64,000 bases of DNA from positions 8,804,001 to 8,868,000 of the forward strand of contig OX597816.1 of assembly GCA_951406725.2 (NCBI GenBank), read 5' to 3'. The stretch comes from Octopus vulgaris. Lineage: Eukaryota. This document shows, piece after piece, positions 828-59,800 of the stretch. Every line of letters begins with the position of its first letter. The stretch's first letter is position 1. The position numbers and the translations under genes are program-made. Under the pieces are notes generated by a model. It was not told the DNA's origin. It saw only the letters and a list, made by a program, of their open reading frames with translations, and made no database searches.

Positions 828-1015
828 ATTCTGTTGTTTCTGGGGAGAGTCATTTTCTTTTTGTGCCTTATATTGTAACACACTCACCGGTAAAATTTTG
901 ACTTTTTTCTTATTTTTTATTCTCCTAAAATTTTCGTTGCGTCTTGCAACCTTTTCAATAGTTTTGACTCTCAACACACGAACTCATATAAAGAACCTTG
1001 CAAACCAAATCCCAA
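828..1015 (-). mobile_element. Short PLE-type element with U3-A8 minimal hammerhead (925-961); second copy at 58811-59125
   Basis: Minus strand CTA-TTGAAAA-G-GTTGC aagac GCAAC-GAAA-ATT-T-TAG; the same sequence recurs at ~58.8-59.1 kb. Confidence 0.55.
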
Positions 1016-1140
1016 AACGAAAAACGTCTTTAATTTCACACTAACTGACAAATATTAGCAATGTACTCCTGTCAAAGTTTACATAAAGCTCAGCAAATTT
1101 GAGACCAAAACTTTCAAAATGCTTTGTCAGGCAAACATTC

Positions 1141-53800: not shown

Positions 53801-56800
53801 CCAGGGGAAGAAACTAGAAGTAGTTGATAGCTTCCACTACCGAAGTGACCAAGTTAGTAGTGGGGGTGGATGCTCAGTGAGTTTTACTACAAGAATAAGA
53901 ATAGCCTGGGAAAAGTTTAGAAAGCTTCTTCACCTACTGACGACAAAGGGTCTCTTGCTCAGAGTCAAAGGTAGATTGTACGACGCATGTGTGCAAACTG
54001 CCATGCTTCATGGCAGTGAAACATGGGCCGTGACTGCTGAGGACATGGCTCGCAGGACGGCCTGTTGTGCCAACCTTGGATCGTAGGGCGACCTGCTGTG
54101 CTTGAGGAGACCTATTGAGCCAAGTACATCAACATCAAAATAAAAATCAAATGGAAATTATAGATGTGATACCTGTGCCGGTGGCACGTAAACAGCACCA
54201 TCCGAACATGGCCGATGCTTATTTCAACTATGCTTTCTTTTAATATCCCATAAGATTAAATAAGAAGAAAATAAAGCTCAATATAAACCTTGATAGACAT
54301 TTAAGACAACCAGTGACTTAAAAAAAGGAATACTCACAATGATTGGCCGAACATAGTTCTTCATTATAAATCTAGCATAGTAATTCTTTATCAATGAGTA
54401 TAAGCATTCTTCAGTGCCGAGAACATTCTTCATTTTCAGCTTTATACAACAAAGCACATCCAATCTGTTGGCCTGAAAAGAAAATTAAAGATAAGCTCAT
54501 GTCACTCTCCTTTTGCAATGTTGTGAACTCACCCACCCACCCACTCCCTCTCTCCAGTCCACTTCACTATGTAACAGGGGTACATGGCCACTGCCTGCCT
54601 CCCTGTCACATCTTTGTCATCACCTTTTCTCTCTCCCACCATATCAACTAACCATGTTTCTCTTCTAATGTAATACACCTTTTTCTCTCCTTCAATAATA
54701 CTGCTCCTCCAAGTTCAGGGGTCTTGCCCTATATGTTACTTGGAGACCTCATCGCTGCTGGTGACACATAAAAAGCACCCAGTACACTCTGTAAAGTGGT
54801 TGGCATTAGGAAGGGCATCCAATCATAGAAACCATGCAAAAACAGACAGCAGAGCTTGGTGCAGTCTTCTGACTGTGCCAGTTCCTGTCAAAATGTCCAA
54901 CCCAAGCCAGCATGGGAAGTAGAAGTTAAATGATGATGAAATAAATTTTCATTTAATGAATATCTTCAGCAACATTAAAATCTTATTCAATATTACATTA
55001 GTGCCACCTGACTGGTGCCAGTGCTGGTGGCACATACAAAGCACCATTCAAGTATGGTTGGTGCCAGTGCCGCCTGACTGGCTCCCATGCAGGTGGCACG
55101 TAAAAGCACAAACTATACTCTTGGAGTGGTTGGCTTTAGGAAACCTTGCCAAATCAGCTTGGAGCCTGGCACCCCCCGGCTTGCCAGTTCTCAGTCAGAC
55201 TGTCCAACCCATGCCAGCATAGAAAGCAGATATTAAATGATGACAATTTATTATTTAATACCATGTAGTTATAAATTCGTGAAGGTATTCTGGGCAATTT
55301 TGCTTTAATCATTGTTTTAACAGCCACTTTTCCATGTTTGTATGGGGCCATACAGATTTTCTACTACCAGATATCTTTCCTCTCATCAACCATCACTTGA
55401 TTCTATGCAAGGTTGTCACCATCATCATTTAGCATCCATTTTCTATGCTGGCACGAGTTGGTCATCTTGACAGGACCTAGCAAAGCCAGGATCCAAAGCA
55501 AGTTCCATTTCTACAGCTAAATGCCGTTCCTAACACCAACCACTTTACAGAGTGGACTGGGTGCTTTTAATGTGGCACCAGCACCACAAGGGTCACCAAA
55601 TACCTTGCAAGACAAAAATCCCTTAACTAGGAGTAGGGAAGTTGTATTGAGGGGGTGTAATTTTGTGCTGGTTGAGAGATTTAAGGGATAGATATAGCTG
55701 TTTTACTGCAGAGGAGGTACATGGTAAAGGTGATATTTCTCCATAGCTGAAATTGGTTTCACAGAAGAATGGAAATGAATAACATATTTGTTTCAGTTTC
55801 CATCTAGCAAATTCACTTACAAGGCTTTGCTTGGCCCAAGTCTACAGCAGAAGACACTTCCCTAAGGTGCTATCCATGGGACTGAACCTGAAACATCATC
55901 ACCATCATTGTTTAACGTCTGCTTTCCATGCTAGCATGGGTTGGACGATTTTGACTGAGGACTGGCAAACCAGATGGCTGCACCAGACTCCAATCTGATC
56001 TGGCAGAGTTTCTACTGCTGGATGCCCTTCCTAACACCAACCACTCCGAGAGTGTAGTGGGTGCTTTTTACGTGCCACCAGTACGAACCATGAAGTTAAC
56101 TTCTAATTACACAGCCATGCCTGCATCTAATGGTGCTGGGGACAATTCAGCAGAGAGATTTCCCATTGACATCTCCAAATCAAACCTCCAATTTTACAGT
56201 GGATCCTCCTGTTAACGCAAGTAATTTTTAATCTCCAAAACAACTTACTTTTTGTCGCTTTGCATCTAATGCCATTAAACTGATAAAGCAGGTGATCTGT
56301 AGAGCGAAATCACAGAAGACAGCCATTCCAGCATAGAGCGAAAACATTCGGACAGCAGGCATTGTAGTGAGAGCACCTAAATAGAATGAAAACATGGGTG
56401 ACTAAATATTTACATTATATTTATCATTTTAGAAAATACTAGCAGTATCGCCCGGCGTTGCTCGGGTTTGTAAGGGAAATAACTATATAAGCATTTTTAG
56501 AGATGTAAAGTATAATAGCCATCTCAAAATGGCTAACCACAAAGGGGGGGGGGGGGGTGTTACTGTAGCTTTTTACGTTCTGAGATTTAATAATAAATTT
56601 TTAGAGCGTTACTTCCCTTATATATGCCAAAAATACATTAAAAATGGTAAAAATTGATGGTAAATTTTTTTTTAAATTGTAGACTCACGCTAATACCCAG
56701 AAGGGCTCGATATGAATCACGACTTCACTGAGGTAGTCTTTGCCTTTCATACTTTTGGGGATCAATAAATTAAGTACCAGTGAAGCAATATAATTGACTA

Positions 56801-59800
56801 GTTCCTTCTCCAAAATTTCAGGCCCTGTGTCTATAGTAGAAACGATTATTAATGAATTGGTAGGATGATTAGCATGTCACCAAACTGCCTTATGATATTT
56901 ACATAGAGTTCTTTACAGTCTGAGTTGAAAAATGGCCGGAAACAACTTTGCTTTATCTCTCTGGGGTCAATAACATAAAGCAGCAGTCAACTACAAGGGA
57001 ATCAATGCACCTCCCCTCAAAACTCTTGCAAGGCTGACAAGATTGTTGAGGTATGACAAAAAGAGAAATATGTGCCTCAGAAGGGATGGGCAAGGCTTGT
57101 GTACAACTAGCAGGTTCAGGGGAGAAAAGAAATGTAGTAATGGTTAAAAAAAAACAACAACTGGATAACGAACCCTCAACCCTTTGCTTACCTATCCAGT
57201 TAACCAGCTTCAAGATTCAAAGACTAAGGTGGAGAATAACACCCAGTCCCTCAAAAACTCAATCTCTTCTAATCAGTTAATATGATTCTTTCAAGATACT
57301 ACAGCAATTAATATGTTTTAATTACACTTACCTAATAAGAAAGCTACCGATTCAGAAAGACTGGTAAGCAGCATACTTGGACCAATTTTACCAACAATTC
57401 TTCCAATTTTGCACTCAAACATTTCATCTGGGTCACCTACATCACGCTAAAAGGACAAAACAAATTTCAAGTTTAAGTGACCTATGACAGCTGTATTTAC
57501 ACAATGATATTTTCACCATTATTTTAAGGTCTGCTCTTTTTTAAATTCAGGATGTGAAAGCAAGTGGCCAAGTGGTGAAAGTGTGGCACTCACAATCATA
57601 AAATCACGGTTTCATTTCATAGACTGAGCAATGTACTGTGTCCTTGAGCAAACCACTTCATTTCATATTGCTACTCCAGTCCACTCAGCTGTTAATGAGC
57701 AACCACACAACGGACTGGTAAGTTAAGCCTGTGATGGACCTGCGTCTCATGAAGGGGGAGATGCACTTCCAGTCACTTCCACACCATGAAGACCAGTTTA
57801 AGATTTGGCATTATGTGTTCCAGGGATCATGACTGAGTCTGAGCCATGATAGGACTGAGCCAGTCTACTACACAGAACCTAGACTCTCTGCCATTTGATC
57901 TGTGAGGCCCAATATTCTCAGACTTAGGCTATCTGTTTGCACCCAAAACTTCACAAAGTGGAACAAGTTATTTTGCTATGGCAAGGGAGCAAAGTCTGAC
58001 TTTTCAGGCAGAGCCATTCAATGCAATTTCACCAGCTCCTGCTACTGTAGGCACAAGGAAATCTTTCATTTAGCATGGAATTTTCATCCACAATTAGAAA
58101 TGCGAACGTGAAGTTAGTGAAGAGAATTCAAGTTAAAATCACGCAGAGGAGTCATAAACGAAGTTCAACTTCATTAAAAGTGGTAAGTTTCTATAAAAAG
58201 ACTTTTGTTTCAATCAGTTTTGAAAATAACAAAGAAATCAGTAAAATAATTTTGCCACTATTAACCCTTTAGTATTAAAACTGGCCATACACTGGCTCTA
58301 TGTTCAAACTGGCCAAGTTTGGCCCCTCACATCTACTCAACAATGTCATTCTAAAAATAAGCTGTCACATCATCAATATCTTAAAACTACAAGATAATGC
58401 ATGATTAATTTAAAATGAATAAGCATTCCGGAGATGTACTTGCAGAGCAAGTGACCTGATCTGAGATCGTGTGCTGGAACGAAAACAATTGCAGCGTGGA
58501 AGGTGTTTACAAGCCATTTAAGAAACACACAAAAACCGTAAGATTCACTTCAACATTCAAATTTAATTTGTCAAAATATTTTCGGCGCTTTAAGACCGCG
58601 ACCTGTTCACTGACAAAATTCTGTGCTGCATTCCATTTGACAGAATATCCAAATGCAAAAGGGTTAAGCTGGTGTTTCAAACTTAAGTTTATATGAAATT
58701 TTGATGGAGGGTTTTAATTTAAATCACTTTAACACAAGTTTATAGCATAAAATGAAGGGCAAATTTTAAAAGTGGGTTGGTATGAAAACAGTAAATCTGT
58801 AACAGGAATAATTTCTGTTGTGTCTGGGGAGAGTCATTTTCTTTTTGTGCCTTATAATGTAACACACTCACCGGCAAAATTTCCACTTATTTCTTATTTT
58901 TATATTCCTAAAATTTTTGTTGCATCTTGAGAGTCAAGACTATTGAAAAGGTTGCAAAACGCAACAAAAATTTTAGGAAAATAAAAATAAGAAAAAAAGT
59001 GGAAATTTTACCGGTGAGTGTGTTACATTATAAGGCAAAAAAGAAAATGACTCTCCCCAGACACAACAGAATATGCTTCAACACACAAACTCATATAAAG
59101 AATCTTGCAAACCAAATCCAAAAAAGGAATAATTTCAACATGAAGAAATGCAGATGTTGGTGCAAATATCTGAAAGAGACATTGATTTAAATCCTATGAG
59201 TGACAAGAACGGACACTTACCTGTAATGCTTGCACAAGAATAAAGATGTTGTCAACTCCGACAGCCAGTACTAAAAATGGTACGACTTCAATAATGATAA
59301 GGGTGGCTGGCTGACCAATGTAGCTGAAGATGCCAAGAGACATCATCACAGACAGAAATACAATGACAACTCCTCCAAGACCGAGGGTAATTTTGGAATC
59401 AACCTGAAAACAGAAACCAAACTTAGTATATGTTTCTTTTACTACCCACAAGGGGCTAAACATTGAGGGGACAAACAAGGACAGACAAACGGATTAAGTT
59501 GATTACATCGACTCCAGTGCGTAACTGGTACTTAATTTATCGACCCCGAAAGGATGAGAGGCAAAGTCGGACTCGGCGGAATTTGAACTCAGAACCTAAC
59601 GGCAGACGAAATACGGCTACGCATTTCGCCCGGCGTGCTAACGACTCTGCCAGCTCACCGCCTTAAGCAAACTTAGTATAAAAGAAAACAAACTAGTATC
59701 ATCATCAGTCAACATCTGTTTTCCATGCTGGCAAGTGTTGGACAGTTTGACTGGAGCTGGCAAGATGGAGACCTGAACCAAGTTCTGGTAGTCTGCTTTG

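Follow-up and report, generated by a model that had tools for sequence, protein, structure and literature searches.

Hammerhead motifs with C-G, U-A and G-C versions of the core 3-8 pair in Penelope-like element families of Octopus vulgaris

Repeats in a stretch of 64,000 nucleotides from Octopus vulgaris (hereafter the window) appear to carry the same small ribozyme motif with different bases at one core pair, which raises the question of what these repeats are and whether the pair is under selection. An earlier note on this DNA had named nine sites with minimal hammerheads in about eight unrelated repeat types, with positions 3 and 8 as C-G, U-A or G-C. The described motif was present at each named site (9/9), and the sites proved to be copies of eight multi-copy repeat families. 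The features are given below; copies beyond the earlier list are marked as additional.

925..961, minus strand: intact minimal hammerhead with U3-A8 core UUGAAAA, inside a short pLTR copy (839-1030) of a Penelope-like element (PLE) family
5627..5672, plus strand: intact minimal hammerhead with C3-G8 core CUGAAGA, at a PLE 3′ end
12167..12265, minus strand: decayed hammerhead reading CCGAAGA; family core CUGAAGA, U4C private to this copy
15254..15304, plus strand: GUGAACA hammerhead of G3-C8 type, decayed, within a short copy spanning 15250-15443
18045..18125, plus strand (site 18041): C3-G8 hammerhead CUGAUGA, CpG-decayed, stem I of 2 bp, from a PLE family with a GIY-YIG endonuclease (EN) upstream
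24163..24241, minus strand: decayed C3-G8 hammerhead CUGAGGA with A/A flanking stem II, by family comparison
26740..27250, minus strand: 5′-truncated PLE with a GIY-YIG EN end (26999-27250), then a decayed 5627-family hammerhead (26740-26865, minus; additional)
28953..28988, minus strand: minimal hammerhead with C3-G8 and A6U (CUGUAGA), otherwise intact; CUGUAGA in 26/30 homologues (additional)
37564..37652, plus strand (site 37568): decayed C3-G8 hammerhead CUGAAGA; family stem II of 15 bp, palindrome of 8 nt
43307..43410, minus strand: decayed copy of the 5627 family, by sequence comparison (additional)
~53292..53327, minus strand: A6U-family copy, CUGUACA by a private G8C (53323), by family comparison (additional)
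53601..53638, minus strand: intact minimal hammerhead with C3-G8 and A6U (CUGUUGA); at locus L067 its subfamily lies behind a GIY-YIG EN
58426..58631, minus strand: ~206-nt short pLTR copy of the G3-C8 PLE, 5′ end fixed, 3′ tail optional
58567..58617, minus strand: minimal hammerhead with G3-C8 core GUGAACA, stem I of 7 bp, palindrome of 6 nt, one private stem II mismatch
58822..59062, inverted pair: 925-family copies, the direct copy U3-A8 with a damaged GAAA; includes 58931-59062 (plus; additional)

Intact as single copies are only 925, 5627 and 53601, and nearly so 58567. The other five of the nine named copies (12167, 15254, 18041, 24163 and 37568) have private lesions or CpG decay relative to their family majority. 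Inverted half-copies lie at 12299-12425(+) and 24227-24310(+), beside the 12167 and 24163 sites respectively.

Family consensi and frequency in the genome

The majority sequence was a minimal type I hammerhead in all eight families. In seven of them it follows N3-U4-G5-A6-N7-N8-A9, GAAA and NUH with 3-8 pairing, and the eighth carries A6U together with C3-G8; the pairing is kept in the family consensi as C-G, U-A or G-C, as had been proposed. Stems I and II are short and an extra nucleotide often precedes stem II. The 18041 and 925 families have a stem I of just 2-3 bp, and the 12167 family has a 13-bp stem II flanked by U/U. The stem III palindrome of 4-10 nt is self-complementary in 8/8 families, that of 18041 requiring two G-U pairs, and the free position N7 varies within families. 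Among copies picked by an upstream motif, U3 and A8 were each present in 27/30 members of the 925 family, and G3 and C8 each in 15/16 members of the G3-C8 family. In addition, GUGAACA was read in 25/25 motifs found behind the EN at 30 EN-selected loci of the latter. The U4C at 12167, which the note had listed as a variant core, turned out to be private to that copy: it occurs in 1/25 homologues, 19 of which have CUGAAGA. As separate families, U4C motifs were found elsewhere in the genome sample (L054, L061 and L066).

This sample comprised 60 stretches of 10 kb (600 kb) at fixed positions, searched with a descriptor that leaves positions 3 and 8 free. Of 35 matches, 31 had a Watson-Crick 3-8 pair, compared with a mean of 1.25 over eight shuffles, while non-pairing bases were found in 4 matches against 3.0 in the shuffles. 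In the window, five palindromic motifs reached a score of at least 9, against none in 40/40 block-wise dinucleotide shuffles. The predicted excess over shuffled sequence was thus borne out. The 31 pairing matches in the sample consist of 25 C-G, 5 U-A and 1 G-C, and 15 of them escape a CUGANGA search, in line with the expectation that standard searches overlook variant families. Because these motifs are otherwise missed, hammerhead descriptors should free positions 3, 4, 6 and 8. An Rfam scan of the window (E≤5) gave no hammerhead among the 60 matches listed.

Family matches numbered 18 in the 64-kb window (1 per 3.6 kb) versus 34 in the 600 kb (1 per 18 kb). This makes the window some five times richer than the sample, an excess exaggerated by our having derived the families from the window itself. 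The note's rate of roughly one motif per 5 kb fails genome-wide. A large population is nevertheless present: intact motifs occur at about 1 per 19 kb of the sample, which by crude extrapolation from a clumped sample gives roughly 10^5 in the genome.

Linkage to Penelope-like elements and covariation of the 3-8 pair

PLE genes for RT and GIY-YIG EN were tied to five families (5627, 18041, A6U, G3-C8 and 925), and the reading of the motifs as PLE-type minimal hammerheads is supported. The link to a PLE that the note had suggested seeking for each family was obtained for these five but not for 12167, 24163 and 37568, to which no PLE ORF could be tied in the copies and flanks examined. A tblastn search of three PLE pieces against the family flanks had given no link; long copies gave links later. 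In the 5627 family, 16/25 EN-selected loci contain the full motif and 3/25 a partial one, as read by eye; the 3′ order is EN stop, tRNA-like segment, (AAT)n, hammerhead and tail. The family is without a Cys linker and by its sequence looks Penelope/Poseidon-like. ARAGORN reported no tRNA in the window, and its relaxed runs were noisy. A same-strand EN lies upstream in 4/25 loci of the 18041 family and an RT-EN upstream in 5/30 long copies of the 925 family; for A6U the EN is present at one locus, L067, with a UTR common to L135. EN fragments in L030, L172 and L184 were rejected as links since their strand is opposite to that of the hammerhead; they may be inverted partners of the 12167 family.

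The G3-C8 parent, L382, encodes RT-EN in a 1025-aa open frame with the hammerhead ~1 kb past the stop. Pfam placed GIY-YIG above cut-off at the C-terminus of this ORF and gave no RVT_1 match; the RT motifs were recognized by sequence reading and tblastn. The EN is also C-terminal in L292, where an optional, frameshifted ORF1 is seen, and on the ground of this EN position the variant families were rejected as Naiads, whose endonuclease is N-terminal. Further PLE hallmarks are an inverted partner (15/30 G3-C8 loci, 5/30 loci of the 925 family) and (TA)n targets. The G3-C8 family has two alternative 3′ ends, 58 nt apart. A young element with an intact 781-aa ORF and two pLTRs, for which 63/150 EN matches score equal to the query's own locus, has U3-A8 as the core of each pLTR and in 28/30 loci. 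The elements resemble EN+ PLEs of Neptune/Nematis type (PMC8557442) in their GIY-YIG at the C-terminus, the Cys-rich linker, the (TA)n targets, an inverted 5′-truncated partner, a tail and an optional frameshifted ORF1; we claim no clade for them.

The repeat types are eight multi-copy families as described, but not all are unrelated. The G3-C8 and U3-A8 (925) families have endonucleases 51% identical, and a C3-G8/A9C family belongs to the same group, within which EN identity is 51-54%. Related RT-EN proteins are followed by seven motifs, which have C-G in four cases, U-A in two and G-C in one, with no mismatch. In this small alignment, chosen via a stem II descriptor and composed of three motifs from this genome and four from metagenome contigs, 41/42 cells of the 3-8 pair and stem II are paired, a value reached by 0/500 shuffles. 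The metagenome relatives comprised 23 loci, several of them short downstream, of which 17 were scanned and four had a motif (three by script, one by eye). Because an EN tree of nine rows has no strongly supported branch, we claim no order for the 3-8 changes.

Minimal type I hammerheads in pLTRs of metazoan PLEs, including the U3-A8 core, are already published (Cervera and de la Pena 2014, PMC4209133), and the finding does not define a new system. Our motifs share with them the topology, the additional nucleotide ahead of stem II, G10.1-C11.1 in the majority of families and the palindromic stem III, as well as many families per genome, mostly solitary and truncated copies and the occurrence of copies in inverted pairs. 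Two U3-A8 cores, UUGAAAA and UUGAUAA, recur unchanged in Schistosoma families. The accessible alignment of 56 motifs in that paper includes neither G3-C8, A6U, U4C and A9C cores nor a cephalopod, and octopus differs from the systems it describes in having three 3-8 pair types among related PLE lineages. Natural core variants with U3-A8 covariation, A6C or a U10.1-U11.1 mismatch were described as rare (Perreault et al. 2011, PMC3088659; A6C follow-up PMC7151607), and G3-C8 and A6U are absent from the available text of the former. Our literature search, incomplete in coverage, found no natural family-wide G3-C8 core, no A6U family and no study of octopus PLE hammerheads, and the natural G3-C8 form looks previously undescribed.

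Proposed function and alternative readings

What PLE hammerheads do for the element is not settled in the literature (PMC8557442, PMC11167929). The published minimal ones are weak in vitro, one monomer being inactive (PMC4209133). In the Anolis Poseidon PAc, cleavage requires the PLE protein, C3G/G8C restores it in part, and the templates are mainly RNAs that were not cut (PMC11167929). The octopus elements resemble PAc in the pLTR hammerhead, in a tail whose presence would depend on which of two RT start sites is used, and in a template that would be uncut; G3-C8, an engineered partial-rescue mutant there, characterizes here a natural family whose ORFs are intact.

We consider it likely that the motifs are pLTR end-pieces of several PLE families, derived from masters with a predicted hammerhead that is slow, relies on a dimer or on protein for assistance, and holds 3-8 as C-G, U-A or G-C. 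A master element would be transcribed from its own pLTR, and RT would initiate internally at the tail, copying RNA not yet cut and scattering short copies, whose later decay would be neutral. Multimeric RNA left over would be cut by the hammerhead after its palindrome pairs with a second copy or the PLE protein folds it. In co-folding, dimers were 1.8-6.4 kcal/mol below two monomers; stems I and II were predicted and the palindrome-paired helix was absent.

The 3-8 pair belongs to the active hammerhead fold. For this reason single changes at 3 or 8 would be purged in masters, and double changes would survive. The covariation speaks for selection, as the note had it, in the master elements alone and not in the decayed copies at these sites. 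Tentatively, the sequences may also be read as one PLE lineage having explored three Watson-Crick 3-8 versions, including a catalytically active natural G3-C8 in intact, recently mobile elements. If so, and with A6U, U4C and A9C, about half of animal PLE hammerheads would be invisible to standard searches, and PLEs would tolerate or favour tuned-down, protein-assisted cores.

Deviations from the fast consensus, which count against this proposal, are seen in the A6U family, in an A9C family and in the weak stem I of the young family. A rather unlikely alternative is that conservation of the fold reflects a signal for binding or folding by the PLE protein, the G3-C8, A6U and A9C variants cutting little or never. 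It fits with insertion in vitro without need for cleavage and the absence of RNA-seq ends at the cut site in Anolis (PMC11167929), with the drop in activity below 0.1 per min caused by A6C (PMC3088659), with the spread of the A6U and A9C families nonetheless, and with our genomic copies, which continue uncut over the predicted cleavage site. Against it, families with unrelated stems retain 3-8 pairing, GAAA, A15-U16 pairing and H17, a catalytic signature rather than a generic hairpin; the free N7 varies within families.

We regard as very improbable that selection acts on the dispersed copies themselves as regulators of the host that would, for instance, cut pre-mRNAs of surrounding genes. Their extrapolated number and coverage by contigs of guessed RNA runs would suit such a role, but the private lesions in five of the nine named copies, the single copies without a dimer partner and the divergence of the 925-family core, like that of stems and loop (3.1% versus 3.6% in 30 copies), do not. 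The 8.1% divergence of the 3′ flank was set aside because truncations inflate it. Contigs of runs with guessed RNA status, a kind of data that cannot reveal RNA ends, showed no ends and no intron joint in the G3-C8 3′ region, which says little either way. Finally, chance matches or decay of ordinary C3-G8 motifs hardly come into question: relaxed descriptors do give ~4 chance matches per 600 kb and the U4C at 12167 and G8C at 53323 are confirmed private mutations, but for G3-C8, U3-A8 and A6U such an origin is refuted by the family counts, with G3-C8 and U3-A8 being the family state in copies picked blind to positions 3 and 8 and lying at the usual PLE hammerhead position.

Fixation of G3-C8, U3-A8 and A6U in natural families whose parent ORFs are intact (L382, L292) supports the active-site 3-8 pair phylogenetically, in the setting of a mobile element. 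These families also offer material at hand to test if dimers, or the protein that the element encodes, rescue weak cores. Non-LTR retrozymes, which have a canonical hammerhead in tandem repeats of 170-400 nt, were rejected as a class, the window copies being solitary or inverted. Outside the window, a retrozyme-like tandem array was seen at L031.

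Hammerhead motifs in the window and their families

The window belongs to a 2.8-Gb animal genome and is rich in repeats; among named proteins, the one most similar to an element protein encoded here comes from an octopus. The hammerhead motif that the earlier note had described was present at the named sites. Scanning with a descriptor (stem I, core, stem II, GAAA, stem III, NUH) yielded palindromic motifs with a score of at least 9 at 925, 5627, 53601 and 58567 and at a new site, 28953, while 40/40 shuffled windows gave none. The remaining named sites, read directly from the sequence, match the motif but bear lesions. 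None of the 60 Rfam matches that the window gave with E up to 5 was a hammerhead. MFS-like transporter exons were also seen at 22044-24016(+), as weak NCBIfam matches below cut-off.

A genome search with each site gave 272 to 1546 first-look DNA candidates, of which the best 25-30 loci were fetched. The majority sequence of the families was a clean minimal hammerhead. Among these best loci the core was GUGAACA in 30/30 homologues of 58567 (the G3-C8 family), UUGAAAA in 28/30 of 925 (U3-A8), CUGUAGA in 26/30 of 28953 (the A6U family), CUGAUGA in 24/25 of 18041, CUGAAGA in 19/25 of 12167, CUGA(A/G)GA in 18/25 of 37568 and CUGAGGA in 14/25 of 24163, an older family. Since these loci had been chosen by similarity, they were supplemented by copies picked through an upstream motif or through the endonuclease (EN). 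Motif-chosen copies retained G3 and C8 (15/16 each) or U3 and A8 in the 925 family (27/30 each), and GUGAACA occurred in 25/25 motifs within 1.5 kb behind EN (30 EN-selected loci, five without a motif in range).

The U4C change at 12167 proved private to one copy (1/25 homologues) and is not a family trait. Elsewhere, U4C cores (CCGANGA) form families with several independent copies (L054, L061, L066, L261). An unpaired nucleotide flanks stem II on both sides, not only 5′ (U/U, A/A, A/C or A/G), in the 12167 and 24163 families and at L050, L062, L218 and L449.

Parent Penelope-like elements

The proposed link of each family to a Penelope-like retroelement (PLE) held for five families, which have EN or reverse transcriptase plus EN (RT-EN) upstream; for 12167, 24163 and 37568 a search of their loci found no PLE ORF. 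PLE-like inverted partners occurred in 4/25, 6/25 and 8/25 loci of these three, respectively. The 5627 family shows the order EN stop, tRNA-like segment, (AAT)n, hammerhead, and the window holds a further piece of this type:

26740-27250, - strand: PLE piece with the 5627-type arrangement

The tRNA-like segment of the 5627 family, between EN stop and hammerhead (5480-5560(+), 26860-26960(-)), has what we take to be A- and B-box-like letters and is a candidate Pol III promoter; ARAGORN calls no tRNA there. EN lies upstream in 4/25 loci of 18041. In the A6U family, EN and then a CT-rich UTR, common to L135, precede the hammerhead in L067. For G3-C8, a loose end recurring in three runs led to 16 long copies and on to an RT-EN gene in L312; for this parent 150 EN matches reach at least 85% identity, and their open frames extend to as much as 1025 aa. 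In L312:4200-5500 a transposase insertion, presumably mariner-like, splits the 3′ UTR. The 925 family yielded 1280 long copies via the upstream motif, with RT-EN upstream in 5/30 fetched.

A separate, very young U3-A8 element was also found:

L292:300-5450 (C6:133343000-133350500): full-length PLE; pseudo-LTR (pLTR), ORF1, RT-EN, pLTR

Its 479-aa ORF1 frame overlaps an intact 781-aa RT-EN frame, and 63/150 EN matches equal the score of the locus from which the query was taken. The core UUGAUAA was kept in 28/30 loci; stem I is weak. This PLE is a good candidate active element.

Covariation of the 3-8 pair

The repeat types had been considered unrelated, yet the G3-C8 and 925 families and a third one have endonucleases that share 51-54% identity, compared with 24-32% to the other families. 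The core of the third family is C3-G8 with A9C:

L402:2309-2354 and L401: two identical A9C copies of the sister PLE family

A9C with U3-A8 was seen in a metagenome relative (L411:2492-2538). The 3-8 pair is U-A in one and C-G in three of four metagenome relatives, so that the seven related motifs comprise four C-G, two U-A and one G-C; 41/42 cells of their alignment pair, in a small and selected set. Given the related endonucleases and the pairing in all seven motifs, the compensatory 3-8 swap is a case of homologous motifs covarying, and this is stronger evidence than the earlier note's comparison of supposedly unrelated repeats. The EN tree is too weak to give an order of changes.

Sixty 10-kb stretches at round genome positions were scanned with positions 3, 4, 6, 7 and 8 free, giving 35 matches in 22 stretches: 25 C-G, five U-A (three families), one G-C and four non-pairing. 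Eight shuffles averaged 4.25 matches, 1.25 of them pairing. Enrichment was thus limited to pairing combinations (about 25-fold), with non-pairing matches at background level. The standard descriptor CUGANGA covered 16/31 pairing matches, and variant cores do escape it, as predicted. Extrapolation suggests about 1.4 x 10^5 intact motifs genome-wide, a rough figure because matches are clumped (seven in one tandem array). The density in the window does not serve as a genome-wide rate: its own families gave 18 matches in 64 kb against 34 in the 600-kb sample.

Known variants and copy structure

The octopus motifs are a real feature of an overall type already known. The available part of PMC4209133 describes many families of minimal PLE hammerheads, with copies in the thousands, and contains the same U3-A8 cores as this genome; natural U3-A8, A6C and U10.1-U11.1 variants appear in that of PMC3088659. 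G3-C8 was seen only as an engineered mutant (available parts of PMC11167929 and PMC3884650); the literature searched, with relevant 2017 work outside its coverage, held no natural case, and the accessible portions of PMC12192606, PMC7761336, PMC7151607 and PMC7229834 added nothing. Natural G3-C8 and A6U cores have probably not been described before.

Short G3-C8 and 925 copies have a fixed start just before stem I, read through the uncut cleavage site and end at either of two tail positions, frequently with an inverted partner. They match the Anolis PLE in the accessible part of PMC11167929, where RT starts internally on uncleaved RNA and the hammerhead cuts only with PLE protein, C3G/G8C being partly tolerated. 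Cleavage by the octopus hammerheads is a predicted activity, and action as dimers would follow by analogy with minimal PLE hammerheads (PMC4209133, in part). Co-folding placed dimers 1.8-6.4 kcal/mol below two monomers and recovered stems I and II, but not the helix paired through the palindrome. Selection on the predicted active fold would act on master elements, and genomic copies would be fossils.

Comparison of 5′ ends (window 58631(-), 925-family 5′ ends, L296-L350) showed G-AG in short copies versus C-AG or T-AG in long ones, with G in 8/10 and 21/25. The difference is consistent with transcripts that begin with a cap, later copied as G, or with a very small first exon; sequencing-run contigs showed no intron joint in the G3-C8 3′ region. 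In the G3-C8 long form a branch-point and pyrimidine tract precede the AG.

The genome also carries retrozyme-like canonical type I hammerheads (L031:2300-4550, L168, L440), including a tandem array with a unit of ~353-359 nt and an inverted arm; relatives of these have U3-A8 cores.
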